From assembly GCA_032250835.1 (NCBI GenBank), contig JAVVEA010000001.1, forward strand, positions 542,765 to 606,764: DNA of 64,000 bases. Direction: 5' to 3'. The notes beneath the pieces were generated by a model. The model was not told the DNA's origin. It saw only the letters and a list, made by a program, of their open reading frames with translations, and ran no database searches. Of the stretch, positions 40,600-64,000 are shown one piece after another. The position numbers and the translations under genes were made by a program. Position 1 is the first letter of the stretch. Each line of letters begins with the position of its first letter. The DNA is from a bacterium (GTDB lineage Bacteria > SAR324 > XYD2-FULL-50-16).

Positions 40600-40760
40600 T
40601 GCTCCTCCTTCGGTGGTTTGGGGCCATCGTCCCAAAGAGGTTGGTGGCGCATCTTTTCGGCGTCATCGAACTGGTGGTTTTTCAGGCCCCAAATAAAGGC
40701 GGCCAAGCCGCCCAGACCGAGCAACAAAGAAACGCCCAACATGATCGGTAACATTTGCAT
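40596..40760 (-). CDS. ccoS: cbb3 oxidase maturation protein
   Basis: Manual translation MQMLPIMLGVSLLLGLGGLAAFIWGLKNHQFDDAEK...; below track cutoff. Confidence 0.88.
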   Translation of the reverse strand: MQMLPIMLGVSLLLGLGGLAAFIWGLKNHQFDDAEKMRHQPLWDDGPKPPKEEQ

Positions 40761-49310: not shown

Positions 49311-50398
49311 TGGCGGATTTTAAACTCTTGATCGTTGATGACTTGGCCGAAAACCTACAGGCCATCGCCGCTAGTTTGGAGGGGACGGGCTACGATATGG
49401 CCTTTGCCCTCAGCGGGGAAGAGGCTTTAGAAAAATGCGCCGCCACCGACTTCGACCTGGTTATGTTGGACCTGATGATGCCTGGCATTGACGGCATGGA
49501 GGTCTTGTACCGTCTACGGATCAACCCCAGCACCGCCGACATCCCGGTGGTGATCGTCTCGGCGAAACGGGAGCTAGACATCAATCTTCAGGCCCTTGAG
49601 TTGGGGGCGGTAGACTACCTAGCCAAGCCCTTCGACAAGCGCGAACTGCTGCTGCGGGTGCGCAATCAGTTGGAACTACGGGGCACCCGCAAGGCGCTAG
49701 AAGAGGCCAACCGGGTTAAGGACCGGTTTCTTTCGCTTTTGGCCCATGACCTCAAAGCCCCCTTGGGTTTGGTCTTCCAGCAGGCAGCCCAAGGCCTCAA
49801 ACAGACCGATGTTCCCGAAGGGGGAGCGCTGCACCAACGTTTTGAAGCGATCCAAAAAAGTGCCCAAGGGGGGTTGGATTTGATCCAACAGCTTCTGGAC
49901 TGGGGACGATTGCACCAGGGGAACGTCCCCTTCCGACCACGCCGGTTTGACCTTTTTGAAGTTGCCGAAAGAGTCAAAAGGTACCTTGAGGACGCCGCTC
50001 AGAACAAAGGGGTTTGCCTGGAGAACCGAATAGCTCGGGGCAGTGGCGTCTGGGCGGACCCTGAAATGGTCGAAGCGATTTTACGCAACCTGATAGGTAA
50101 TAGCTTAAAATACACCGAACAGGGCGGCCAAGTCTTCGTTTGCGCCACCTCGGTTGGCCCGAACCTGATGGTAGAGGTTTTGGATCAGGGCTGCGGGATA
50201 CCACCAGAGCGTCTCAAACAACTCTTTTTGCCGGGAGGCCTGAACAGTACGGAAGGGACCGAAGGTGAGCGGGGCAGCGGCTTGGGCCTGTCTTTGTGTC
50301 AGGCCTTGGCTGCCCAACATCACACCCGGATTCAGGCTGAATCGACTCCCGGTGAGGGCAGCCGCTTTTACTTTTCCCTGGCCCAGGAGTCCGCTTGA
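49310..50398 (+). CDS. REC-HisKA-HATPase hybrid kinase
   Basis: LVMLDLMMP; LAHDLKAP; NLIGNSLKY; GSGLGL. Confidence 0.92.
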   Translation: MADFKLLIVDDLAENLQAIAASLEGTGYDMAFALSGEEALEKCAATDFDLVMLDLMMPGIDGMEVLYRLRINPSTADIPVVIVSAKRELDINLQALELGAVDYLAKPFDKRELLLRVRNQLELRGTRKALEEANRVKDRFLSLLAHDLKAPLGLVFQQAAQGLKQTDVPEGGALHQRFEAIQKSAQGGLDLIQQLLDWGRLHQGNVPFRPRRFDLFEVAERVKRYLEDAAQNKGVCLENRIARGSGVWADPEMVEAILRNLIGNSLKYTEQGGQVFVCATSVGPNLMVEVLDQGCGIPPERLKQLFLPGGLNSTEGTEGERGSGLGLSLCQALAAQHHTRIQAESTPGEGSRFYFSLAQESA

Positions 50399-52776
50399 AG
50401 TCGCGGGGGCTGCTCTTATGCTTTCTGATTCCGCCGGGTTGTGCCGGAGCAGAAGGCCTGGACGGATACCTGCCCCCTTGGGCCCAGCTGCTGGGCTTCG
50501 GGGTCCTTTTTCTGTTGATCCTTGCTTGGACTTGGAGGCGCAAAAACAGGGCATTGGTCGAACACAAACGTTATAAGGAACTAGCCGACCAAAACCGCTT
50601 AGTTTTGCAGTCTGTCGATGAAGGGATTTTCGGGCTAGATTTAGACGGGCGCTGTACCTTCATCAACGAGGCGGCTTGCCGGATGTTTGGCTACCGCCGC
50701 GCCGAGGTCATCGGCGCGGACATGCATTTGCTCACCCACCATACCCAACTAGACGGTACGCCCTTCCCCAAAGAGAAGTGCCCCACCTGGGACGCCATGT
50801 ACCGGGGTCAAGTGACTCGGGTGGCCGAAGATAATTTTTGGAACCGCGAGGGGCAACCTTTTATGGTGACCTATTCAACGACACCCTTGAGCGATCAAGG
50901 GCAAATCCTTGGTGCAGTCACGGTTTTTCGAGACCTCACCCGCCAAAAACAAGACCAGCAGCGTATTGCTGAACAACGGGCTACCCTAGAAGGCCTTTTT
51001 ACCGGTTCGGCGGCCATGATGGGGGTCTGTGAACAGCTAGAAAACGACCTGCTAGTGGTGGCCATCAACCCGGCGGCGGCCCAATTTTTTGGTTACCCCG
51101 CAGAGGTCTTAACAGGCCAGCGCGTACGCTCCTTAGGCCCGCCTGAGCGATACCTAAAACTTTGGAGCCGCCAATTTGAAGCTGCCCGCACCGCAGGCAC
51201 CCCCAAAAGGTACACCTACCGCCACCACCTTAGCCGCCGCGAATGCCGCTGGCTAGAAGTCGATGTATTTTATACCGGCATGGGCGAGTTGGGCCCCCGT
51301 TACACTTTTGTGGCCTTAGACCAGACCGAACGCAAGCGCAACGAAAGACAACTGATCCAAGCCAAGCAAGAAGCGCAACGGGCCGCCCAGGTTAAGACCG
51401 ATTTCTTAGCCAATATCAGCCACGAAATCCGCACCCCCCTCAATTCGGTGCTGGTCTTTGCCCAATTACTGGCCGAAAAGGGGCTCACCGAGCAGCAAAA
51501 GACACTGGTCAACCCGATCCAATCGGCGGGCAAAAACCTCTTGACGCTGATCAATGATCTATTGGACTTCCGCAAGATCGAGGTGGGGCACCTCAACCTG
51601 AATTTGGAGGGCTTCGCCTTAAGCCCCTTGCTCGACGAGGTGCTGGAGGGGTTTATGCCCCAAGCCGAATCCAAAGGCCTCAAGCTAGTCCGCGAACTGC
51701 CCGACCCTCTCCCGCCGCCGGTATTGTTGGACCCCGAACGGCTGCGCCAAATCTTGATGAATTTATTGGGCAACGCCGTGAAATTTAGCGACCAAGGGGA
51801 AATCCGCCTTTTGCTCTCCTGGAAGAGTTTGGGCAAAACCCGCTTGAGCGTTACCATAAAGGTCCTGGACCAAGGCCCCGGTATTGCGGCACAACAACAG
51901 CAACACCTTTTTGAAGCCTTTACCCAGGGTAAACAAAAACAGCGTGAAGGGGCCGGACTGGGCTTAGCCATAGCTAAGCAGCTGACCCAACTGATGGGCG
52001 GGGAACTGAGCGTGGACAGCCAGTTGGGCCAAGGTACCTGTTTCACCTTGTTTTTCGCCACGGTCCCGTTGGCCACCGTCACCCAAAGTACCCCGACAAA
52101 GGTCACGCCGCTGCCCGAAGAGCTGATCAATGCCAAAATTTGGCTGTTGATGAATCCGCCGGAGCGCCCCCATTTAGAGCAAACCCTTTCGATGATGGGC
52201 GTTCAGGTGTACGGGCCCCAATTGCCGGGTCAATTGGGGCCGCCAGAAAACCTAAGCGTCGATCTTTGCCTGATTGATTTAGATTCTCTGAGCGAGGCAC
52301 AACAAGCGCAGCTTCAAGTCAACTGCACGGGTCTAATGCCACTATTGTTGTTGAGCCAGCAGGAAGTGCACTTCACATCGGGTTACAAGCCCACAGTGCT
52401 CAGCAAGCCGGTAGAGCCCGCCAGCCTTAGAGGCCAATTAGTGCGCCTGCTACGCCAATCCAAGCCAACAGTCCACCCCCCAGAACAAGGGCTTTCCGAG
52501 GTCATGAGCCATTGGGACGCCGGGCGTTGGGCCCTGGAATCGGCCTCAGTGTTGACTTATCTTGAGCAAGTGGAGCGAGAGGGCCTCCTCTCGGCCTATC
52601 AAGGCCTTAGTGAACGGTTGTCTTCGTTGGCCAGCGCGGCCCAACATGCTGGCCTCGCGGCCAAGTCCGCCCGGTTGGAAAAGGCCCTCGCACGCTTCGA
52701 TATCTCATCCCTCAGGCAAGAGGCTACCCAACTACGGCAGCTATTGGAGCAGTTAACGGCTCAGATAGACAAATAG
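50395..52776 (+). CDS. Membrane PAS-PAS histidine kinase with degenerate REC/Hpt-like tail
   Basis: Two PAS domains; ISHEIRTP; NLLGNAVKF; GAGLGL. Confidence 0.88.
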   Translation: MKSRGLLLCFLIPPGCAGAEGLDGYLPPWAQLLGFGVLFLLILAWTWRRKNRALVEHKRYKELADQNRLVLQSVDEGIFGLDLDGRCTFINEAACRMFGYRRAEVIGADMHLLTHHTQLDGTPFPKEKCPTWDAMYRGQVTRVAEDNFWNREGQPFMVTYSTTPLSDQGQILGAVTVFRDLTRQKQDQQRIAEQRATLEGLFTGSAAMMGVCEQLENDLLVVAINPAAAQFFGYPAEVLTGQRVRSLGPPERYLKLWSRQFEAARTAGTPKRYTYRHHLSRRECRWLEVDVFYTGMGELGPRYTFVALDQTERKRNERQLIQAKQEAQRAAQVKTDFLANISHEIRTPLNSVLVFAQLLAEKGLTEQQKTLVNPIQSAGKNLLTLINDLLDFRKIEVGHLNLNLEGFALSPLLDEVLEGFMPQAESKGLKLVRELPDPLPPPVLLDPERLRQILMNLLGNAVKFSDQGEIRLLLSWKSLGKTRLSVTIKVLDQGPGIAAQQQQHLFEAFTQGKQKQREGAGLGLAIAKQLTQLMGGELSVDSQLGQGTCFTLFFATVPLATVTQSTPTKVTPLPEELINAKIWLLMNPPERPHLEQTLSMMGVQVYGPQLPGQLGPPENLSVDLCLIDLDSLSEAQQAQLQVNCTGLMPLLLLSQQEVHFTSGYKPTVLSKPVEPASLRGQLVRLLRQSKPTVHPPEQGLSEVMSHWDAGRWALESASVLTYLEQVEREGLLSAYQGLSERLSSLASAAQHAGLAAKSARLEKALARFDISSLRQEATQLRQLLEQLTAQIDK

Positions 52777-57195: not shown

Positions 57196-60100
57196 TTAGA
57201 GGTTAAGTCCGCCGCGTTGTTTGCGCTCGCCGGTCTGATTAGCTAAGCTGCGTCCCATTTGGTCTAGGTCAAAGACCACTACCGGCCCGCCCTTGTCGCG
57301 GATGCTGCGTTGGATGTCCACCAACTCACCCAAGCGATCCACCAACCGGTCTAGCCGCTGGTTTTCGCCTTCTTTAGACCCGCCTTTGATTTCGACGGGA
57401 ATGCTCTTTCCGTTCGGCAGAGGTACGTGGGCTTCGGCCTGGAACCTACCTTCGGAGACCCAAGCGAGCTGCGGCCCGTAGCTAATACCGCCGTCGGCAT
57501 ATCCGCCAATCTGTAACCGGTCGCCCACCAACTGCGAAAGCCCCGCATAGTCCACCTGTTTGTATCCCGCCACTTCGCGCACCAAAGAAGGCAACACCCG
57601 CGCTAAGTCTTGGGCGATCACGCCCGCCCCGGCCCCAAAATGGCCCTTGGCCTGCCCCTGCCCGTTCCAATCCCAATAGGCTTGGCGTACGCCGGGCAAT
57701 AGCTCTTGGCCGTAGTGCACGTTTGACTTAAGCCGCTGGTCCGAAAGGCCGGACCAGTGGCTACTTCCAAGCCCACCTATGCCTCCGCCGCCGCCGGGTA
57801 AAGCTTCCATAACGGCATCATAAATGGCACGGGGCAGCTCCCTAATCATCTTCACAACTGCATTGTAAAAATTTGAGCTAATCTCCGTGATTGCGCGGGT
57901 GATATTGTCCCAAATGCCTTTTACAACAGATGAAGCCGCGCCCCAAATCGCCGAGCCTAGGTCCATGATGGCGTGCCAAGCACCTGAAATCAGGCCGCCT
58001 AAGTCCTTAAACAGGGTTTTGAGCATCCCGCCCAGGGCTCCAAACGAGTCGGTTAGTCCCGTCCAAATATCGCTCAGTATTTTAGCGACCCCTTCAAAGA
58101 CTGATTTTAAGGCGTTGATTCCGCCCTGAACGTTGGTCAAAATACCTGCAATCCATTCCAGGGAATCCAAGATCATCTGCAAGATGCCCTTGCTTTCGGG
58201 GCCCAGTGTGGGGGCTTCGACGGCATCGGCCAGACTGTTGGCCTGGGTGATGAGGTCGGGACCGCTCGAAAGCCCGTCCAGGTCGTTCTGGGTCACCTGT
58301 TGCACCGATTCCAAGCCCGCCACCACCGCCTGATAGATGTCGCGATACCCCTGGCTGCTGCGTAGTTGGGCTTGGGCGGCGTCTAAATATTGGGTGCTGT
58401 AGCCGGTCAGTTGCCCCACCCGGTCTTGCCGTTCCTTCGCCGAAATGCCCGATTCCTGGGCGGCGGCGAGCAATTCATTAAACCTTGCCGTCTTGGCGTC
58501 TAGGCTCTGCAACTCGGGGTTGTACTGAGCCCCGCTGATCTGCTCTAAGGTGCTTTTGAGGGTGTTGAGCACCCCTTGTAGCGTGGTGCGGCTCGCCTCG
58601 GTAGAATCTTTGATCTTCTTTAGGGTTTCAAACTGCTGCTTGGAAAGATCAATATAGCGGTCCCAATAGTCACTGGCCCCACGGTCGAGCCCTTCCCGCT
58701 CACTTTGCAGCCGCTTGAACTCGGCCCCCCAGTCTTGGGGGCCCCAGTCGGCTCGTTGTAAGTCAGTGACCCAGCCCCGGATGGATTTGGTCAGCTCCTT
58801 GAGCGCCGCCACCTGAGCTTCGGTCACCTGCCGCTCGCCGCCGCCAAAAATCTGGGCCAGGGCCCGCTGGAAGCCCTCGAAAAAGCCGTTGATCAGGCGG
58901 TCCAAAAATTCCGCCGTAAGTAAGGTACCCAGGGCCTCGGTGAACAGGTCCGCCAAACCGTGGATGCTGTCGCGCAGCAACGTGGGGAGGGACTTTAGCC
59001 AGTTGCCGATCTTCGAGCCCAAATCCCGCCAGGCCTTTAATAAATCGGTCACCATGTTCATGATCGCGTTGGCCAATGAAGGGATGGCCATGGCCAAGTT
59101 ATACATAGAAGAAGCTGACTTCAGCATCGCGCCGGTCGCATCCATCAGCGGCTTGCCGAATTCTTCTTTGCCGGATTCCTTATCTTTTTGGTTCTGCTGG
59201 TCGAACTGCTCCTTGGTCTGGCCGATCTCCTCCACCTTCTGGGCAAAAAACCGCTGCCCCATCTCCTCGCCCATCTTCCCGCCAATGTCCCGGGCGATTT
59301 GCTCATATTTCTGAAAAGCTTCCTGGATCGCCCGGTCGGCCCATTCGGCGCTGCCTCGTTTGATCGTTGAGTCATAAAGGCGCTGGGCCTCTTCACGGGC
59401 CATAATCTTTGCCGGATCTTCCGAAGCAGCCGCCACGCTTTGGGCTTGTTCGAAGCTGCCAGAGTTTCTCACGTCCAGTAGTTGCTGCTCCACCTGCAAC
59501 TGATCCAGCAGGTCCTGGTTCTTTTTCTGTTCGGTGGAACGAATTTCCTCACCTTGCGCGGCTTGGTCTTCTAAGTACTTTTTACGCAATTGCAGAAACT
59601 TGATCTCCCGCTGGATCGCCTGCTGGTGTTCGGGCTTGTCCACTAGTCCAAAGGCTTCGCCCATCTTAGTAAAAGCCCCACGTTGGGCTGATTCCAGTTT
59701 GACATACTCACTTCTCAGCTTCTTTATCTGTGATTTTACGCCCTCGTCATTCAAATCACCATATTTCCCATTCAGGGCGTTATCACTCAGTAAAGCCGTA
59801 TCAGCTTTACTTTGCTGGTCAGCAGAACTTTTCTTCATTCTTGTGAAAATTTCGATCCAGCCTCTTACCAATATAAACGTTGGGTTCATGGCGATTAAGA
59901 TTGTTTTGACGATCTTAAATATTTTGACCAAAACCTCGCCCAAATCCACTAAGACCAGTTTGTTTTCCACGATCCATTGAGTGGCCTCTTGAAACCCTTT
60001 TTTTAGGTCACCAGAAAACAGACCATATATCTCGTCGCTGACATCGCCGACCGCCGAAAGAAGCCCATCCAAAGCCCCCGAAAGGGTATCTCGTTCTGCC

Positions 60101-61224
60101 TCAGCAACTTGTTTGTTGATCCCCGCACCCTTGCGGTATGCCGCGTTCAAATTCTCTACCGCATCGGCCTGCCCCAACAATGGGCCATAAGCTGCGGCGG
60201 CTTCCTTGCCCAACAGCTTCTGAACCTGCGCCGCGTCCCAACCCGCTTTCTGCATCTCCTTGAGTGCCTCAACAAAGCCCTTTCCTTGGCCGTCCACCTT
60301 CAAGGCTTTAAAGGTTTCGGGTAATACTTTAAAGGCGGCATCAAGGCCCGTTCCCGCGTCCTTGATCTGAACCCCCTGGTCAACCAAGGAGACCAAAATA
60401 GCGCCGACTTGTTCCAGGTCGTGGCCCGAAGCTTGTGCGCTTTTCCCAACCTTTTGGAACGCCGCCGCCAGCTCTGGGACCGTCACGTTTGCTCGGTTGA
60501 TGCTATGGACGATCATATCGTTGATCCGTCCCATATCTTGCGGCAACAGTTCCATGCTTTTCTTGATTTTGCCCGAGTGTAACGCTGCCTGTTCTGGGGT
60601 TATCTGGGCAGCGGTGGCCAAGTCCATGGCACCGGGAAGGGCTGCTAGGGCTTGGGGTGTATCCAATTTAGCGTGTTGCAATTCAACAAACCCCTTAAAG
60701 GCTTGGGCTGGAGAGAATTCGGTCTTGAGGCCCATTTCTCGGGCACGCATCTCAGCATTCTTCATCTGATCCGGATCGGCCTTCTTTGCGGCTTGGAACC
60801 TTTTTAGTTCTTTTTCTAAATCGCCAGCATCTTGAACGGCTTTTTTACCCCTTTTCAAGAGATCCCCTACAGCCTCACCGCCCGCTACCGCCCCTTCAAT
60901 GAACGGCATGACAGAAGCGGCATAAATCTCGCGCCGCTGCTTCAACGTCCCACCGTTCCTACTCACGGATAGATAAGTAGTACTCCTATCCCGCTCCCCT
61001 TCGTCGCGGTCTATTGCATGCTTGGCCTTGATCGAGTTTTTGGTGAATCGGTCAAAATTTTGACCCGCCAGGTCCGTAGGACCCCTGTCTTTCAGTCTTG
61101 TGTTGAACTTCTCAACTGCCTTGTCGGTGGATTGAGCTTCCTTGCCCAGAGCTTTCAGCTTGACGGTCAACGCTTCGGCGTTACGCTGGGCTTGCGTGCT
61201 GTCTAGAGAAATCTTGAGGTTCAT
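57196..61224 (-). CDS. Phage tail tape measure protein (TP901 family) with S74-like chaperone domain near C-terminus
   Basis: AREMGLKTEFSPAQA..ALPGAMDLATAA TP901 core; SDQRLKSNV..GVIAQDL..VDY; YADGG..GP..EG..EA..PL; SD AAGGAAGG before ATG 61224. Confidence 0.92.
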   Translation of the reverse strand: MNLKISLDSTQAQRNAEALTVKLKALGKEAQSTDKAVEKFNTRLKDRGPTDLAGQNFDRFTKNSIKAKHAIDRDEGERDRSTTYLSVSRNGGTLKQRREIYAASVMPFIEGAVAGGEAVGDLLKRGKKAVQDAGDLEKELKRFQAAKKADPDQMKNAEMRAREMGLKTEFSPAQAFKGFVELQHAKLDTPQALAALPGAMDLATAAQITPEQAALHSGKIKKSMELLPQDMGRINDMIVHSINRANVTVPELAAAFQKVGKSAQASGHDLEQVGAILVSLVDQGVQIKDAGTGLDAAFKVLPETFKALKVDGQGKGFVEALKEMQKAGWDAAQVQKLLGKEAAAAYGPLLGQADAVENLNAAYRKGAGINKQVAEAERDTLSGALDGLLSAVGDVSDEIYGLFSGDLKKGFQEATQWIVENKLVLVDLGEVLVKIFKIVKTILIAMNPTFILVRGWIEIFTRMKKSSADQQSKADTALLSDNALNGKYGDLNDEGVKSQIKKLRSEYVKLESAQRGAFTKMGEAFGLVDKPEHQQAIQREIKFLQLRKKYLEDQAAQGEEIRSTEQKKNQDLLDQLQVEQQLLDVRNSGSFEQAQSVAAASEDPAKIMAREEAQRLYDSTIKRGSAEWADRAIQEAFQKYEQIARDIGGKMGEEMGQRFFAQKVEEIGQTKEQFDQQNQKDKESGKEEFGKPLMDATGAMLKSASSMYNLAMAIPSLANAIMNMVTDLLKAWRDLGSKIGNWLKSLPTLLRDSIHGLADLFTEALGTLLTAEFLDRLINGFFEGFQRALAQIFGGGERQVTEAQVAALKELTKSIRGWVTDLQRADWGPQDWGAEFKRLQSEREGLDRGASDYWDRYIDLSKQQFETLKKIKDSTEASRTTLQGVLNTLKSTLEQISGAQYNPELQSLDAKTARFNELLAAAQESGISAKERQDRVGQLTGYSTQYLDAAQAQLRSSQGYRDIYQAVVAGLESVQQVTQNDLDGLSSGPDLITQANSLADAVEAPTLGPESKGILQMILDSLEWIAGILTNVQGGINALKSVFEGVAKILSDIWTGLTDSFGALGGMLKTLFKDLGGLISGAWHAIMDLGSAIWGAASSVVKGIWDNITRAITEISSNFYNAVVKMIRELPRAIYDAVMEALPGGGGGIGGLGSSHWSGLSDQRLKSNVHYGQELLPGVRQAYWDWNGQGQAKGHFGAGAGVIAQDLARVLPSLVREVAGYKQVDYAGLSQLVGDRLQIGGYADGGISYGPQLAWVSEGRFQAEAHVPLPNGKSIPVEIKGGSKEGENQRLDRLVDRLGELVDIQRSIRDKGGPVVVFDLDQMGRSLANQTGERKQRGGLNL

Positions 61225-61426
61225 CTCACAATCCTTCCTTGTTGAGGCTGGGGATAAATGATGGGTTCCATCATCCAAACCAACCGAAGTTCAAATCCGC
61301 CCGATCCTTGGGCGTCTAACGGGATTAAAAACCCTAATTACGTAAAAAGCTCAATCCTTATCACCGAACCGCAACATATACCCCCGAACGGTCACAGGAA
61401 AAGGGGGTAAGGATTCCGCTAAAAGA
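61141..61426 (-). repeat. Leader + TMP 5' repeat, copy 1 (attached to the full TMP)
   Basis: Aligns with 62294-62544 and 63714-64000. Confidence 0.92.
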
Positions 61427-61568
61427 AGCGTGTCTTGATCACTTTGAGTCCCGTAGACAACTGTTGGCATTGTTATGGAGTGCCAATTGCCATTGGGAAT
61501 ATTTTGAGGTATTTCTAACTTTATATTTTAAAGGGGAATTCCCCCAGGACCCATCTCTAAAAAACCAA

Positions 61569-62243
61569 ATGAAATCTATCGTCCTCCTTTTTACCTTTCT
61601 GCTGGCCTTCTCCTGGCCCGTTTACGCCGAAATGAAGCCGGAGACCTTAAAAAAGATCAAGCAACTCTACTTAGAGCTTCAGGCCTTTAAAAACGATTCG
61701 CTTTTGACCCATGTCGGCTTGAGTCCCTATTGCATCTACGGTAAATGGTCTGATTCAGTCTCGGCGATCAACCGTGAGTTGGGCCAAGATCAGCGCATGA
61801 AATTAGCCGATGGGACATTTTTTTATCCTGTCATCTCATTGAGTTATTTAGGGAATGAGATATCGGACAACGCAGCTCATGGCAGACCACCAGACAACGC
61901 CGACACTCGGAAGGACGCACGTGAGTTTGAACAAGCCCTCGGCATCAAAACACCCCCGCCAAACCCTGGCCGCCAGTTATACCTAACAAAGGGGGATCGC
62001 TTGTGTTCTGCCGACAAGGAACTATTTATAGAGGCAACCACTTGGCTTGCCGATGGCGATTTTGAGGCCTTTAAACCCCTGTACCTCTCAGATCAGGTAT
62101 TTGCGACGAAAGCTAACGTTGAAGTCTACATTGTGGAAAGCGACATCCTCCTCCTAAGAGTCCGCCCCAAAGGCTCGCAGGCCACCTATTGGTGCTATGA
62201 AGATGTTATCCAAGACTGTTCCAGCCCACCGTCAGGCGAATAG
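61569..62243 (+). CDS. Secreted hypothetical protein (cassette gene 1)
   Basis: Signal peptide MKSIVLLFTFLLAFSWPVYA; C-terminal domain shared with 62677..63426. Confidence 0.8.
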   Translation: MKSIVLLFTFLLAFSWPVYAEMKPETLKKIKQLYLELQAFKNDSLLTHVGLSPYCIYGKWSDSVSAINRELGQDQRMKLADGTFFYPVISLSYLGNEISDNAAHGRPPDNADTRKDAREFEQALGIKTPPPNPGRQLYLTKGDRLCSADKELFIEATTWLADGDFEAFKPLYLSDQVFATKANVEVYIVESDILLLRVRPKGSQATYWCYEDVIQDCSSPPSGE

Positions 62244-62256
62244 CGACAAAAGCGCC

Positions 62257-62349
62257 TCAGGTCCGAAACGCCTTTTGAGGCACTCGAATTAATAACGCTT
62301 CGGCATTACGCTGGGCCTGGGTGCTGTCCAAAGAAATTTTTAGATTCAT
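62257..62349 (-). CDS. 30-aa mini-ORF / truncated TMP 5' end
   Basis: MNLKISLDSTQAQRNAEALLIRVPQKAFRT*; first 19 aa identical to TMP; same SD. Confidence 0.6.
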   Translation of the reverse strand: MNLKISLDSTQAQRNAEALLIRVPQKAFRT

Positions 62350-62544
62350 CGCGCAATCCTTCCTTGTTGAGGCTGGGGGAAGTTGATGGAATCCATCATC
62401 CAAACCAACCGATGTTCAATACCACCCAATCCCTGGGCGACCATTTAGACCAAAAGGCCCGTAATCCGCGAAAGTCTAACCCCTTCAAGCGAACCCCAAC
62501 ATACCCCCTGATGACATACAGAGACAGAGGGCAAGGATTCCGCT
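62294..62544 (-). repeat. Leader + TMP 5' repeat, copy 2 (most diverged)
   Basis: Shares CAATCCTTCCTTGTTGAGGCTGGGG, CCATCATCCAAACCAACCGA and AAGGATTCCGCT. Confidence 0.9.
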
Positions 62545-62676
62545 CCATAAAAACGAATCAACTCCCAAGCCGGAGCCAGTTGCAAACGAGGAAGATTTGA
62601 GTTATTTTTTCCGCAAATGAACTAAAGCCCAGAACCCGTCTCGGCACCCATATTCTAGCTAAAACAACTGAAAGCC

Positions 62677-63426
62677 ATGAAAACCCTCATTCTGCTCCTT
62701 TGCTCCCTGGGCCTTGCCTCCGCCACCTTGGCCGCCAAAAAACCCGATCCCCCCACCTGCCCCAAGGCCCTGGACCCGGCCAAGGTTAAAAAGTATCAAA
62801 TCATCAAGCAGGAGCGCTCTAGCTCGACAAGAATCGATGCCAACATCTACGCACCCCACGCCAAAACTATTGAGGAACGCGCCCAGACCGCCATGCAGGC
62901 GGCGCTGGAAATCCAAAAGGAAACTCAAGCGCGTTATGTTTGGGTGATAATGATTCGAAGCCCCGAACAACCCGAATCACCCTGGAGGGCCAATGCCAGC
63001 TTCAACCCCGAGGCACATAGAGACAAACATGTCGTCTGGCGGGTAGTGACTCAGGTCGCCAGCCGCCCCCGCTACAACGCCCAATTCACGACCTATTGCC
63101 AGCAGTGGGAACCCTCTAAACTCACCCCCCTCAAAAGCACCCAGGTCGACCACATCAAGCCCCCACCGCCAGAAATCCACCACACGAGTGGGCTCGGTCT
63201 CTGCACAGTCTCAAAGGAAAACCTGATGAAAGCTAACAAGCTTTTTGATGCACATAAGGAGGGAGAACTAATGCGTATGGTTGAGGAATATTCACTGGCC
63301 ACCTTAAAGGAGGACTTACCAGTCTATCTTGAGGATGAGACCAATGAATCGTTTATTGCGATCCGTCCAAAAAACGAATCCGTATATTTCTGGTGTTTTA
63401 CCTCCCCGTCACCTCTGAAGGATTGA
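62677..63426 (+). CDS. Secreted protein with DUF4875-like N-domain (cassette gene 2)
   Basis: Signal peptide; APHAKTIEERAQTAMQAALEIQKET resembles DUF4875 (recalled); C-domain shared with 61569..62243. Confidence 0.8.
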   Translation: MKTLILLLCSLGLASATLAAKKPDPPTCPKALDPAKVKKYQIIKQERSSSTRIDANIYAPHAKTIEERAQTAMQAALEIQKETQARYVWVIMIRSPEQPESPWRANASFNPEAHRDKHVVWRVVTQVASRPRYNAQFTTYCQQWEPSKLTPLKSTQVDHIKPPPPEIHHTSGLGLCTVSKENLMKANKLFDAHKEGELMRMVEEYSLATLKEDLPVYLEDETNESFIAIRPKNESVYFWCFTSPSPLKD

Positions 63427-63686
63427 CGCGCTTTTAAGCCAAAAGCGAGGCAGTTTTGGGGTACTTTCGAGGTAAATGCGCTGGTGCCCGGATTTTCGCC
63501 AAAATCCCCTGCCACCGCGCGAAAAATTAACAGGGTGCCATAGAAGTACTAAGACGCAAACCACCGGCTTCACATGGTCGATTCGCTTTAAAATTTTTCC
63601 CTATATTTCAAACATATAATAAAATACTTTTATTGAAGTACTATGAAAGTATTTATGCCCCACCAAAATAGCTCCACCGACATCAG

Positions 63687-63797
63687 CTAGCCCCCTTGGC
63701 TGCTCTTGGCCGCCTTGCCCAGAGCTTTCAGCTTGACGGTCAATGCTTCTGCATTGCGTTGGGCCTGCGTGCTGTCTAGCGAAATCTTTAGGTTCAT
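63687..63797 (-). CDS. 36-aa mini-ORF / truncated TMP 5' end
   Basis: MNLKISLDSTQAQRNAEALTVKLKALGKAAKSSQGG*; first 28 aa identical to TMP. Confidence 0.6.
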   Translation of the reverse strand: MNLKISLDSTQAQRNAEALTVKLKALGKAAKSSQGG

Positions 63798-64000
63798 CGC
63801 ACAATCCTTCCTTGTTGAGGCTGGGGAAAAATGATGGAATCCATCATCCAAACCAACCGAAGTTCAAATCCGCCCTATCCTTGGGCGTCTAACGGGATTA
63901 AAAGGCCCGCAATGCGTAAAAAGCTCAATCCTTATCACCGAATCGCAACATATACCCCCGAAAGGGCACAGGAACAGGGGGCAAGGATTCCGCTAAAAGA
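63714..64000 (-). repeat. Leader + TMP 5' repeat, copy 3 (reaches window edge)
   Basis: Near-collinear with 61141-61426. Confidence 0.92.

Follow-up and report, generated by a model that had tools for sequence, protein, structure and literature searches.

In phage HK97, the exclusion moron gp15 lies between the tail chaperone and tape measure protein (TMP) genes (PMC3594210). Two other kinds of phage-encoded protein are described as acting on tape measures: Tab, a cytoplasmic, prophage-expressed protein encoded between the terminase genes, targets the tape measure of incoming phages (PMC10884400), and the Ltp-type lipoproteins of temperate phages act on the TMP of other phages (PMC3952083). 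For the orphan arrays of CDI and Rhs systems, a displacement model is described in which retained homology permits recombination (PMC4927057). Here, we analyzed a locus of a SAR324 bacterium at which copies of the start of a TMP gene alternate with genes for secreted-type proteins. The window (the whole 64,000-nucleotide stretch of DNA that was analyzed) ends within this locus. We see about an even chance that moron cassettes form a tandem array here, between the tail-assembly-chaperone genes and the TMP gene, and that this array grew by recombination and carries exclusion-type cargo.

The Start of the TMP Gene Is Repeated at the Head of the Cassettes

The TMP matched PhageMin_Tail in a Pfam search (E 7e-23) and 26 PHROG families, nearly all of them named tape measure (best E 1e-31). 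The start of its gene forms part of a repeated unit, composed of the TMP start, the Shine-Dalgarno (SD) sequence and a leader of ∼190 nt, of which three copies lie within the window (U1, U2 and U3; Table 1). A repeat search returned 61140-61330, 62265-62455 and 63713-63903 as direct copies (93% and 72% to copy 1) and aligned 61327-61426 with 63901-64000 at 89%. By BLASTN, U1 matched U3 at 91.7% over 288 nt and U2 at 75.5% over 253 nt. All units carry CAT (ATG on the minus strand), CCTTCCTT (SD AAGGAAGG) and the codons MNLKISLDSTQAQRNAEA, and the leader of U1 holds the near-palindrome TGATGGGTTCCATCA. Homology among the units runs ∼140 nt further toward the cargo, into the promoter-like site before each cargo gene.

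Two more copies (U4 and U5) lie beyond the window edge, at L001 4723-4924 and 6075-6174 (an L001 position is the window position minus 60235), and a sixth (UC21) lies on an orphan 1604-bp contig, C21. All six head their cassettes with a TMP piece that runs from codon 1 to codon 19 or to about codon 29. U3 is truncated by the window end and by a run of 129 Ns that begins exactly there, in U4, codon 4 is a stop and the leader has lost 45 nt, and U5, which adjoins the chaperone genes, is decayed. The TMP-derived short ORFs end after 30-36 codons. An earlier note on this DNA had described three same-orientation copies, each with leader, SD and first TMP codons, only the first of which continues into the full 1342-aa TMP, and had suggested that the array may pass the window edge. 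All of this was borne out, the three copies in gap-free sequence, and counting units past 64000 and genome-wide by BLASTN, as that note proposed, added the two copies past the edge and the one on C21.

The marks of an integron cassette array, an IntI integrase and attC sites, were not seen in the region scanned. The repeats of the array are direct, 250-400 bp long and include coding sequence, with only one weak inverted repeat in the repeat search, and no integrase family was found among the ORFs scanned from window position 40760 to L001 18411. No transposase or integrase is present between the cassettes.

Table 1. Features of the array and the TMP gene within the window
Feature	Position	Strand	Description
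TMP gene	57196..61224	-	1342 aa; ATG at 61224; begins MNLKISLD
Unit U1	61140..61426	-	TMP codons 1-28; T core 61171-61224; SD AAGGAAGG 61233-61240
Promoter-like site before A1	61487..61515	+	TTGCCA-17-TATTTC; consensus match
Cargo gene A1	61569..62243	+	224 aa; signal-peptide-like N terminus, N-domain, Pro-rich linker, SH3b-like C-domain
Hairpin with U run on TMP-sense strand	62247..62277	-	Between A1 stop and end of U2 short ORF; fold of L001 1995-2075
Unit U2	62257..62544	-	30-codon ORF MNLKISLDSTQAQRNAEALLIRVPQKAFRT 62257-62349; T core 62296-62349; SD; B-type leader
Promoter-like site before B1	62580..62608	+	TTGCAA-17-TATTTT; homologous site before B2 also in promoter scan
Cargo gene B1	62677..63426	+	249 aa; signal-peptide-like N terminus, DUF4875-like N-domain, PPPP linker
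Spacer S1	63427..63712		55-nt AT-rich element at 63603-63657; three AGTAYT boxes
Unit U3	63687..64000	-	36-codon ORF MNLKISLDSTQAQRNAEALTVKLKALGKAAKSSQGG 63687-63797; T core 63744-63797; SD; A-type leader

The Array Is Inserted between the Chaperone Genes and the TMP Gene

In four of four related elements (L021-L024), the TMP ORF either overlaps the chaperone T-frame ORF or begins 35 nt past it, in agreement with the earlier note, which had taken a TMP gene directly after the chaperone genes to be the normal order. In the array-bearing element, ∼5.4 kb separates the two. The array is therefore a lineage-specific insertion at the site of the HK97 gp15 moron. As expected of a moron, it stands between genes that are adjacent in relatives and has a base composition unlike that of its neighbors, with a G+C content of 0.43-0.56 (two B-gene windows reach 0.58-0.59), where the chaperone and tube genes have 0.55-0.67. 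No comparator genome carrying the array was found, and the encoded TMP start was absent from the three sequence collections searched. The element that hosts the array is head-tail phage-like and may be defective. A genome-wide search revealed a single full TMP gene and a single tube gene, indicating that the array does not represent several merged prophages.

The Array Is a Higher-Order Tandem Repeat

As a whole, the array forms a 2.6-kb higher-order tandem repeat. The stretch from the 3′ half of A1 through U2 to B1 is 80.4% like that from the 3′ half of A2 through U4 to B2 over 1315 nt, and S1-U3 is 79.4% like S2-U5. There are two junction types in all, one joining an A terminator to TMP codon 19 (three times) and one joining a spacer to TMP codon about 29 (twice). 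The 55-nt AGTAYT element of S1 recurs in S2 and is found twice ahead of the chaperone genes. The two junction types and the higher-order repeat suggest that the array grew mostly by amplification of existing units rather than by many independent captures. The recombination that the earlier note put forward for the array is supported by the mosaic relationships and synonymous divergence described below.

The same architecture would be produced by an old static tandem duplication, which we regard as rather unlikely. Here, one moron and an upstream region reaching into the TMP gene would have been duplicated and the copies would have diverged in place, the TMP-start and leader pieces being kept as functional where they stand, for example as a promoter or operator with a short leader ORF, or as a regulatory region of the cargo. 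The presence of just two junction types fits such a history, as does the regularity of the 2.6-kb repeat. The units, moreover, are ∼80% alike and hence not recent, and most of the growth could be old in-place duplication, which counts against growth by recombination.

The 3.66-Mb assembly contains four N runs, of which two fall in the array: one is the 129-N gap at the window edge, and the other, of 8 Ns, lies inside A2, flanked by an exact 79-nt duplicate. The 400 nt that directly follow the 129-N gap show 100% identity between A1 and A2. The assembly beyond 64000 is therefore not secure, and both the number of copies and their order in that part are uncertain. In addition, two orphan contigs, C21 and C37, hold variants of the cassettes and end in overlaps of about 77 nt with the array. 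These observations would also be expected if the array were in part an assembly artifact, in which a scaffolder chained variants of a single cassette pair from a mixed population or from collapsed repeats, the true array being shorter or reordered. We consider this improbable. U1-A1-U2-B1-S1-U3 is free of gaps, and within it a TMP start with 190 nt of A-type leader comes after S1, an order that a single-pair locus could not produce. U4-B2-S2-U5-chaperone is gap-free as well, the orphan contigs point to more copies, not fewer, and the estimated contamination of the genome is 0.01%.

The Cargo Genes Belong to Two Paralogous Families

The cargo falls into two paralogous families, A and B, of orphan signal-peptide proteins that have an SH3b-like C-terminal domain in common. 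Between the unit copies lie single plus-strand ORFs with signal-peptide-like N termini (A1 and B1 in the window), consistent with the opposite-strand genes for putatively secreted proteins of the earlier note; in place of its variable cargo, there are two families that share a C-terminal domain. The array holds at least four cargo genes, or at least seven when the orphan contigs are counted. C21 carries the 3′ end of A3, a unit, B3 and then another B start that lacks a preceding unit, and C37 carries B4, which is 98% like B1 across the first 202 nt and divergent afterwards. The central part of B1 is nearly invariant and its SH3b-like C-domain variable; in the B genes, dS is 0.05-0.8 in the center and saturated in the C-domain. 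The cargo genes are under purifying selection, with dN/dS values of 0.06-0.6.

Family A had no match in Pfam, PHROG, PADLOC or NCBIfam. For B, DUF4875 (PF16175) was the sole Pfam match; B1 scored 35.2 bits, B2 26.5 and B3 27.0 (cut-off 25), the match in the N-domain covering profile positions 2-65 of 156 only. PHROGs, PADLOC and NCBIfam gave nothing. DUF4875 proteins, which thus share the B N-domain above the gathering score, are without known function, and a search of one literature collection found no paper mentioning DUF4875. Beyond DUF4875, no Pfam, PHROG, PADLOC or NCBIfam family ties A or B to a known exclusion or defense protein. There are no toxin/immunity pairs, each cassette having one gene without a toxin domain in Pfam.

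Among PDB folds, the B1 model was closest to 4lg3 (E 0.014). The C-domain of A and B was modeled with a pLDDT of 94.4, and its best VIA-align matches were 6bim_A (Z 5.8, rmsd 3.5, 66 aligned) and 3h41_A (Z 5.5, rmsd 4.9, 78 aligned), in both cases to the SH3b regions of NlpC/P60 proteins; Foldseek searches of the PDB with this model gave no match at E ≤ 0.001. A word-indexed search returned no relatives of A or B outside this genome, and there were none in 40 related genomes, metagenome or viral contigs, or phage records. The C-domain does align with a secreted family of ∼105 aa (about 20 small signal-peptide proteins of no known function) over TKxGY...VY..D....KIRPKG...WT; these proteins lack the Cys pair of the A/B C-domain. 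P0006 (300 aa) has the same two-domain build as B.

Divergence of the TMP-Start Copies Is Nearly All Synonymous

Across the six copies, at least 16 of the substitutions in the first 18 TMP codons (the T core) are synonymous and only 3 are of another kind, a pattern that rests on 54 nt and that in-place selection on short ORFs could also yield. The T core has 16 variable columns, 12 at codon position 3 and none at position 2 (P = 8e-4 for the codon-position bias and 1e-8 for the synonymous excess); in the leader, which served as the control, variable columns by phase number 24/27/22. Synonymous and other changes amount to 8/0 for U1-U2, 8/0 for U1-U3 and 10/0 for U2-U3, and amino-acid changes are limited to U4 (the stop) and U5 (two replacements). 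The T core and leader also give conflicting relationships (Fisher p 0.003 for each comparison): the nearest neighbors are U1-U4 and U2-UC21 in the T core, and U1-U3 and U2-U4 in the leader. U1 and U3 are identical in codons 19-28, yet differ by 8 synonymous changes in codons 1-18. On these sequence comparisons, the near-purely synonymous divergence and the conflict between T core and leader indicate that TMP-start pieces were probably exchanged with functional TMP alleles.

Copies diverging in place would account for part of this picture. Four copies keep the leader, SD, start codon and an unchanged peptide, and synonymous sites in the T core have diverged to about the same order as those of the neighboring B N-domain (dS). 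The identity of U1 and U2 drops steadily away from the TMP start (81-85%, 82-91%, 72%, 63% and 54%), as a functional core would give. However, the conflicting relationships argue against such a static duplication, as do the tails of the short ORFs past the TMP-derived part, which change by replacements only, so that the ORFs as such are not conserved. Moreover, U4 has acquired its stop and leader deletion although its cassette gene, B2, is intact, and the promoter scan of the TMP-sense strand detected nothing σ70-like in the leader. Nor does the leader have a covariation-supported RNA structure (2/56 pairs).

Candidate Transcription Signals and Possible RNA Regulation

The pattern TTGCMA-17-TAYTTY was present in four of four readable cargo upstream regions (A1, B1, B2 and B3), and the hairpin after A1 is terminator-like for both directions, with equivalent sites after U4 (a 14-pair stem and T run) and on C21 (z −2.0 and −3.1). 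Overall, promoter-like and terminator-like sites in the scan were no commoner than in shuffled sequence. Terminator-like hairpins in the TMP sense stand between the chaperone genes and the TMP gene, an arrangement that we count against the moron array.

The repeated region might instead act as a regulatory RNA, with TMP translation kept low in the lysogen or in superinfecting relatives, either by cargo read-through antisense to the TMP ribosome-binding site or by the invariant leader GCGGAATCCTT pairing the SD region (AAGGATTGCGC) shut. In four of five copies, RNAalifold does pair the SD region with the invariant 5′ end of the leader; SD and start are kept in all copies, and the cargo genes extend right up to the TMP-start pieces. 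We nevertheless think this very improbable: the same 2/56 pairs covary, with an unfavorable covariation term, Rfam gave no match at E up to 1, hairpin terminators separate the A genes from the next TMP-start piece, and a constraint at the RNA level would not yield the strict third-codon-position pattern.

Proposed Origin and Comparison with Known Systems

In each cassette, three parts can be distinguished: a ∼400-bp head module, corresponding to the intergenic region of a divergent TMP-moron pair (TMP codons up to 19 or about 29 together with the SD, the 190-nt leader and a promoter-like site pointing away from TMP); an opposite-strand gene for a putatively secreted two-domain protein (A or B); and a hairpin terminator or spacer. 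The array may have originated in one or two displacement-type recombinations, whereby incoming DNA (a moron and a TMP start) would cross over inside the TMP gene and shift the resident TMP start upstream; U5, decayed and beside the chaperone genes, would be the oldest relic of such a displacement. Head modules would later have recombined with one another, by unequal homologous recombination and by gene conversion, and, as we infer from one genome, would still do so, making the array grow and change. Functional TMP alleles of related phages would take part in the exchange, and this would account for the exact TMP N terminus that is still encoded by copies without function. The cargo would be transcribed from its own promoters in the lysogen, its products acting in the periplasm or envelope with a specificity set by the variable C-domain of B. 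By analogy with HK97 gp15 at the same site, its role would most likely be protection against superinfecting relatives.

HK97 gene 15 is an extra transcription unit at this same site; like the predicted products of the array, its protein is envelope-directed, and in both cases the G+C content departs from that of the neighbors (PMC3594210). However, its one product is a small YebO-family protein of the inner membrane, whereas the array holds multiple opposite-strand genes for proteins of 224-249 aa, each with a TMP-start copy. TMP-targeting exclusion, as by Ltp and Tab, is the kind of function that we propose, by analogy, for the cargo. The gene for Ltp belongs to the lysogeny module. By sequence and family, A and B are unrelated to Ltp and Tab, neither of which is known to form arrays, and they showed no membership in YebO/gp15, Ltp, Sie or PADLOC-type families.

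Like the array, the orphan cdiA-CT/cdiI and rhs-CT/rhsI arrays are tandem cassettes that retain a piece of the main gene (PMC4927057). The resemblance to polymorphic-toxin arrays drawn in the earlier note therefore holds in that a main-gene fragment heads each cassette, and fails in that the cargo is on the opposite strand, unfused and without toxin/immunity pairs. The retained piece is the 5′ end here and an internal or 3′ part in CDI/Rhs arrays, and the cargo, on the plus strand with TMP on the minus strand, is never fused to the repeated piece, unlike the in-frame CDI/Rhs cassettes. Because of this, recombination cannot give the TMP a new end, and recombination between copies would alter cassette number, not the TMP protein. 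Within B, the variable C-domain beside a near-invariant center resembles the modular pattern of the CDI/Rhs arrays.

The Unit Belongs to a Tandem Array That Extends Past the Window Edge

A repeat search bore out the claim of the earlier note that the window contains three direct copies of a unit made up of the start of the tape measure gene (TMP), its SD and a noncoding leader. BLASTN of copy 1 (U1) against the whole assembly matched copy 3 (U3) over 288 nt at 91.7% and copy 2 (U2) over 253 nt at 75.5%. The same search recovered two more partial copies on the same contig, so that the array does continue past the window edge, as had been thought possible, and an additional copy on the 1604-bp orphan contig C21 (UC21). 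In every copy the SD, AAGGAAGG, is followed by an ATG and the first TMP codons, MNLKISLDSTQAQRNAEA, on the minus strand. Only U1 leads into the full TMP of 1342 aa, as proposed; Pfam PhageMin_Tail (E 7e-23) and tape measure families of PHROGs both match this ORF, which is the single full-length TMP in the genome. The genes between copies, described previously as secreted and oppositely oriented, are indeed plus-strand genes with signal-peptide-like N-termini. We refer to these cargo genes as types A and B.

On the plus strand, the array reads TMP (reverse strand), U1, A1, hairpin, U2, B1, spacer S1, U3, a 129-N gap, A2, hairpin, U4, B2, spacer S2, U5, a noncoding region X of 390 nt, the chaperone T-frame and G genes, and the tube gene. 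Positions beyond the window are given on L001, a stretch of contig C11, where L001 position = window position - 60235. The array repeats in tandem at a higher order, its period being ∼2.6 kb: besides the likeness of U1 to U3, the segment from the 3′ half of A1 through U2 and B1 is 80.4% alike over 1315 nt to that from the 3′ half of A2 through U4 and B2, and S1-U3 is 79.4% alike to S2-U5. Homology between units extends past the leader and through a conserved promoter-like sequence, TTGCMA-17-TAYTTY. The array contains only two types of junction. In U2, U4 and the C21 copy, the terminator of the A gene abuts TMP codon 19; U3 and U5 have the spacer joined to TMP codon ∼29. An integron identity of the array was considered and rejected, no integrase family having turned up among the ORFs scanned.

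Coordinates of the array, its elements and its flanks
Feature	Sequence	Position	Strand
Stretch L001	Contig C11	603000-622999	
Element including array (∼26 kb), small terminase to tail fibre	Window; L001	52816-64000; 1-18411	
Flank 1, host PAS histidine kinase	Window	50395-52776	
TMP	Window	57196-61224	-
Leader of U1	Window	61241-61426	
Leader of U2	Window	62350-62544	
Leader of U3	Window	63798-64000	
AT-rich 55-nt element	Window	63603-63657	
AT-rich 55-nt element	L001	5965-6019	
AT-rich 55-nt element	L001	6253-6307	
AT-rich 55-nt element	L001	6437-6491	
B3 to next B start	L002 (= C21)	1-140	
Flank 2, gene resembling a chemotaxis receptor (translation read by eye)	L001	19314 onward	

Contig C21 contains the 3′ end of A3, one unit, B3 and then directly a further B start: ∼25 nt after B3 come the −10 part of the promoter-like site, a 5′ UTR and the start of the B gene. 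Since no TMP-start unit lies between B3 and this B start, not all cassettes are headed by a unit. A second orphan contig, C37, holds a fourth B gene, the first 202 nt of which are 98% like B1 and the remainder different. Together, the two contigs raise the count to at least three A genes and at least four B genes. The part of the array inside the window is gap-free. Two of the four N runs in the assembly fall within the array, A2 includes an 8-N gap with an exact 79-nt duplicate on its flanks, and for 400 nt directly after the 129-N gap A1 is 100% identical to A2; because of the N runs and this identity, the order and number of units past 64000 are uncertain. Related sequence is present in a soil-metagenome run (X1), which contains 27% of the sampled words and yielded 23 contigs, 85-99% alike and covering 24 of 30 bins of L001 1-9000, that include parts of A, B, the spacers and tail genes. 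One of these contigs passes from spacer to a TMP-start piece and continues with unlike sequence, which hints at another junction in a relative; with depth under 4 and short contigs, it was not counted as evidence.

The TMP-Start Pieces Differ Almost Only at Synonymous Sites

We compared the first 18 TMP codons (the T core) among six copies. Of 16 variable columns, 12 fall at codon position 3, four at position 1 and none at position 2 (codon-position bias, P 8e-4), and two of the four position-1 columns are synonymous Leu changes. Specifically, the counts of synonymous and other differences are 8/0 for U1-U2, 8/0 for U1-U3, 10/0 for U2-U3 and 10/0 for U1-UC21, the amino acid being changed only in U4 (a stop at codon 4) and U5 (K4Q and S9R). 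Tallied from the codon table, the T core has at least 16 synonymous substitutions and 3 others, with 22% synonymous expected by chance (synonymous excess, P about 1e-8). As a control, variable columns of the noncoding leader are even by phase (24/27/22). The other unit copies open short ORFs of 30-36 codons, whose tails outside the TMP part contain replacements only, indicating that constraint at the protein level acted on the TMP-derived part rather than on the short ORF itself.

The T core and the leader have different nearest neighbors. The T cores of U1 and U4 (93%) and of U2 and UC21 (96%) are closest, and the leaders pair U1 with U3 (91-94%) and U2 with U4 (74-86%), rank reversals that each have a Fisher p of 0.003. 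Moreover, U1 and U3 are identical in codons 19-28 but have their eight synonymous differences in codons 1-18. From these alignments, we read the T core as having been exchanged patchily with diverged yet functional TMP alleles, atop amplification of the unit. Synonymous-only divergence of dead gene fragments would be a rare and direct trace of such exchange. U5 adjoins native upstream region X. With its two replacements and a TMP frame that breaks off after about codon 21, this copy appears to be the oldest of the displaced TMP starts.

A degenerate pattern of the first 13 TMP codons gave 0 matches in genome, metagenome and viral contigs. Likewise, no relatives were found for the TMP in genome contigs or for the tube protein in viral contigs. 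The TMP matched 319 phage records, with identity below 60% throughout and query coverage always short of 80%; none of these phages is therefore close.

The Array Is Inserted in a Head-Tail Module

The array is located in a complete head-tail module comprising genes for small and large terminase, portal, scaffold, P22-type coat, adaptor, neck, tail terminator, tube, chaperones, TMP, a 598-aa protein and fibre. Homologues of the 598-aa protein directly follow TMP in related elements. The element apparently consists of the head-tail structural module only. The ORFs scanned, which took in part of the small ones, included no gene for an integrase, a repressor, replication or lysis, and the element may thus be a defective prophage or GTA-like.

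Among the other genomes of the same family, 6 of 18 have a tube homologue; across the class the count is 7 of 88, this genome included. One genome (G002) has a related element with terminase and tube proteins 44-45% identical. As a query for a shared chromosomal position, the flanking PAS histidine kinase had too many paralogues to inform. In all four related elements read (L021-L024), the TMP ORF starts within 35 nt of the chaperone T-frame ORF or overlaps it, which identifies the array as a lineage-specific insertion. The G+C content of the array is below that of the adjacent tail genes.

Near the C terminus of the TMP, residues 1161-1215 match Peptidase_S74 weakly (E 1.2e-4; 22.7 bits against a cut-off of 22), and these residues are also matched by baseplate and fibre families of PHROGs. 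Peptidase_S74 is an intramolecular chaperone of endosialidases and tail fibres.

The Cargo Genes Encode Predicted Exported Proteins with a Shared C-Domain

The A proteins have 224 aa and the B proteins 246-249 aa, and both are predicted exported envelope proteins. A word-indexed search of 5.8 billion clusters returned only the own-genome copies of A and B. B was not found in 40 related genomes, bar one weak match (49 residues, E 2.5e-4), nor did a B alignment match metagenome or viral contigs. Similarly, tblastn of B1 and one small C-domain protein against 50,697 phage records gave no match.

B consists of a signal-peptide-like N terminus, an N-domain, a center that is near-invariant in four copies and a variable C-domain. 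The N-domain scores above the Pfam cut-off for DUF4875, and among PDB folds the best match, obtained with a model of pLDDT 62.5, is 4lg3 (E 0.014). Synonymous divergence is 0.05-0.8 in the center and saturated in the C-domain, and dN/dS is 0.06-0.6 throughout; the B genes are therefore mosaic and selected, and the dN/dS values speak against reading them as pseudogenes.

A profile search of 1.84 billion representatives gave 35 matches at E up to 0.001. The nonself matches comprise DUF4875 proteins, ∼20 small C-domain-only proteins (103-130 aa, with a signal peptide and the match restricted to the C-domain) and larger proteins with a C-terminal C-domain; one WD40-repeat protein was judged spurious. 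One of the larger proteins, P0006 (300 aa), shares the two-domain architecture of B. The C-domain of A also aligns with the small secreted-protein family. This group (P0010-P0038) is apparently an unnamed family of small secreted bacterial proteins, its C-domain common to A and B and marked by the motif TKxGY...D..A...VF.LK.G..VY..D....KIRPKG...WT. Neither Pfam nor NCBIfam has a model for this group, and a Pfam search with the small homologues at E up to 10 confirmed no family.

A C-domain model built from the family alignment (pLDDT 94.4) is a small barrel with a helical hairpin. Foldseek against the PDB gave no match at E up to 0.001, VIA-align gave weak matches to SH3b parts of NlpC/P60 proteins (Z 5.8 and 5.5), and BFVD gave two small uncharacterised phage proteins (E under 0.001, TM 0.67-0.73). 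The Atlas provided leads only, a 70% viral 108-aa cluster and Sap1 (PF28314; TM 0.58-0.73), and for the A N-domain no usable feature match, with rows at TM 0.44-0.54 only.

Comparison with Morons and Orphan Cassette Arrays

The morons known from the chaperone-TMP junction occur singly, and we found no description in the literature of a tandem moron array with duplicated TMP starts. The term moron was coined at this site, where HK97 has gene 15, coding for an exclusion protein, between its tail chaperone genes and TMP (PMC3594210). Our array occupies the same site and has two features of morons, a position between genes that are adjacent in relatives and a distinct base composition; it can be likened to a moron sitting where HK97 has gp15 and multiplied into a recombining array. 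It is only this position and precedent that suggest an exclusion role for A and B, and no exclusion or defence family in PHROGs, PADLOC or NCBIfam matched either protein.

The earlier note also likened the array to polymorphic-toxin cassette arrays, a likeness that holds in part. As in CDI/Rhs orphan arrays, a piece of the main gene is kept at each cassette, and U5 as a displaced start fits the displacement model proposed for those arrays (PMC4927057). In contrast, their same-strand, in-frame cassettes and toxin/immunity pairs are missing here.

A more far-reaching reading, which we regard as unlikely, is that the TMP start is a standing recombination anchor by which the element stockpiles diversifying, periplasmic, TMP-directed exclusion proteins. 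Each related phage recombining at the TMP start would leave its own moron and a displaced TMP start. The array would then be to phages what CDI/Rhs orphan arrays are to toxin loci, and the TMP-start relics, in their near-purely synonymous divergence, would be a fossil record of such recombination.

More generally, a diversifying multicopy array with a translatable TMP start per unit would show how a phage can multiply and diversify genes of benefit to the lysogen through homologous recombination within its late operon. Were the cargo exclusion proteins, DUF4875 and the unnamed SH3b-like domain of ∼20 small secreted proteins would gain a function, with the variable B C-domain a candidate specificity module. 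Coming from one locus in one draft genome, with gaps within the array and no comparators, the array has the value of a lead.

Expression Signals and the Leader

The promoter-like site, predicted by consensus match, precedes the cargo in all four readable upstream regions. As to a third feature of morons, a promoter and terminator of their own, the array thus has candidate signals, although in one scan promoter-like and terminator-like sites came up no more often than in shuffled sequence. On the TMP-sense strand, the short ORFs of U2, U4 and the C21 copy are each followed immediately by a hairpin and U run. A late transcript from the chaperone genes would run into these hairpins before reaching TMP, so that transcription of TMP would call for antitermination or else for a promoter within or close to the U1 leader. 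A promoter scan found no sigma-70-like site in the leader.

The leader contains a 15-nt palindrome, TGATGGAATCCATCA, that is perfect in U2 and U3, and its far end carries an invariant GCGGAATCCTT, complementary to the SD region ∼185 nt away. The palindrome could be a protein site and GCGGAATCCTT an anti-SD element, both as candidates. A structured leader RNA is not supported: consensus structures of the two strands have only 2 of 56 and 1 of 46 compensated pairs, and Rfam gave nothing over the array at E up to 1.

An AT-rich 55-nt element occurs in four copies, one per spacer and two within the 390-nt region between U5 and the chaperone genes. It contains three AGTAYT boxes spaced about one helical turn, and in one of the copies it overlaps a promoter-like site directed at TMP. 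The copies may serve as binding sites for a regulator.
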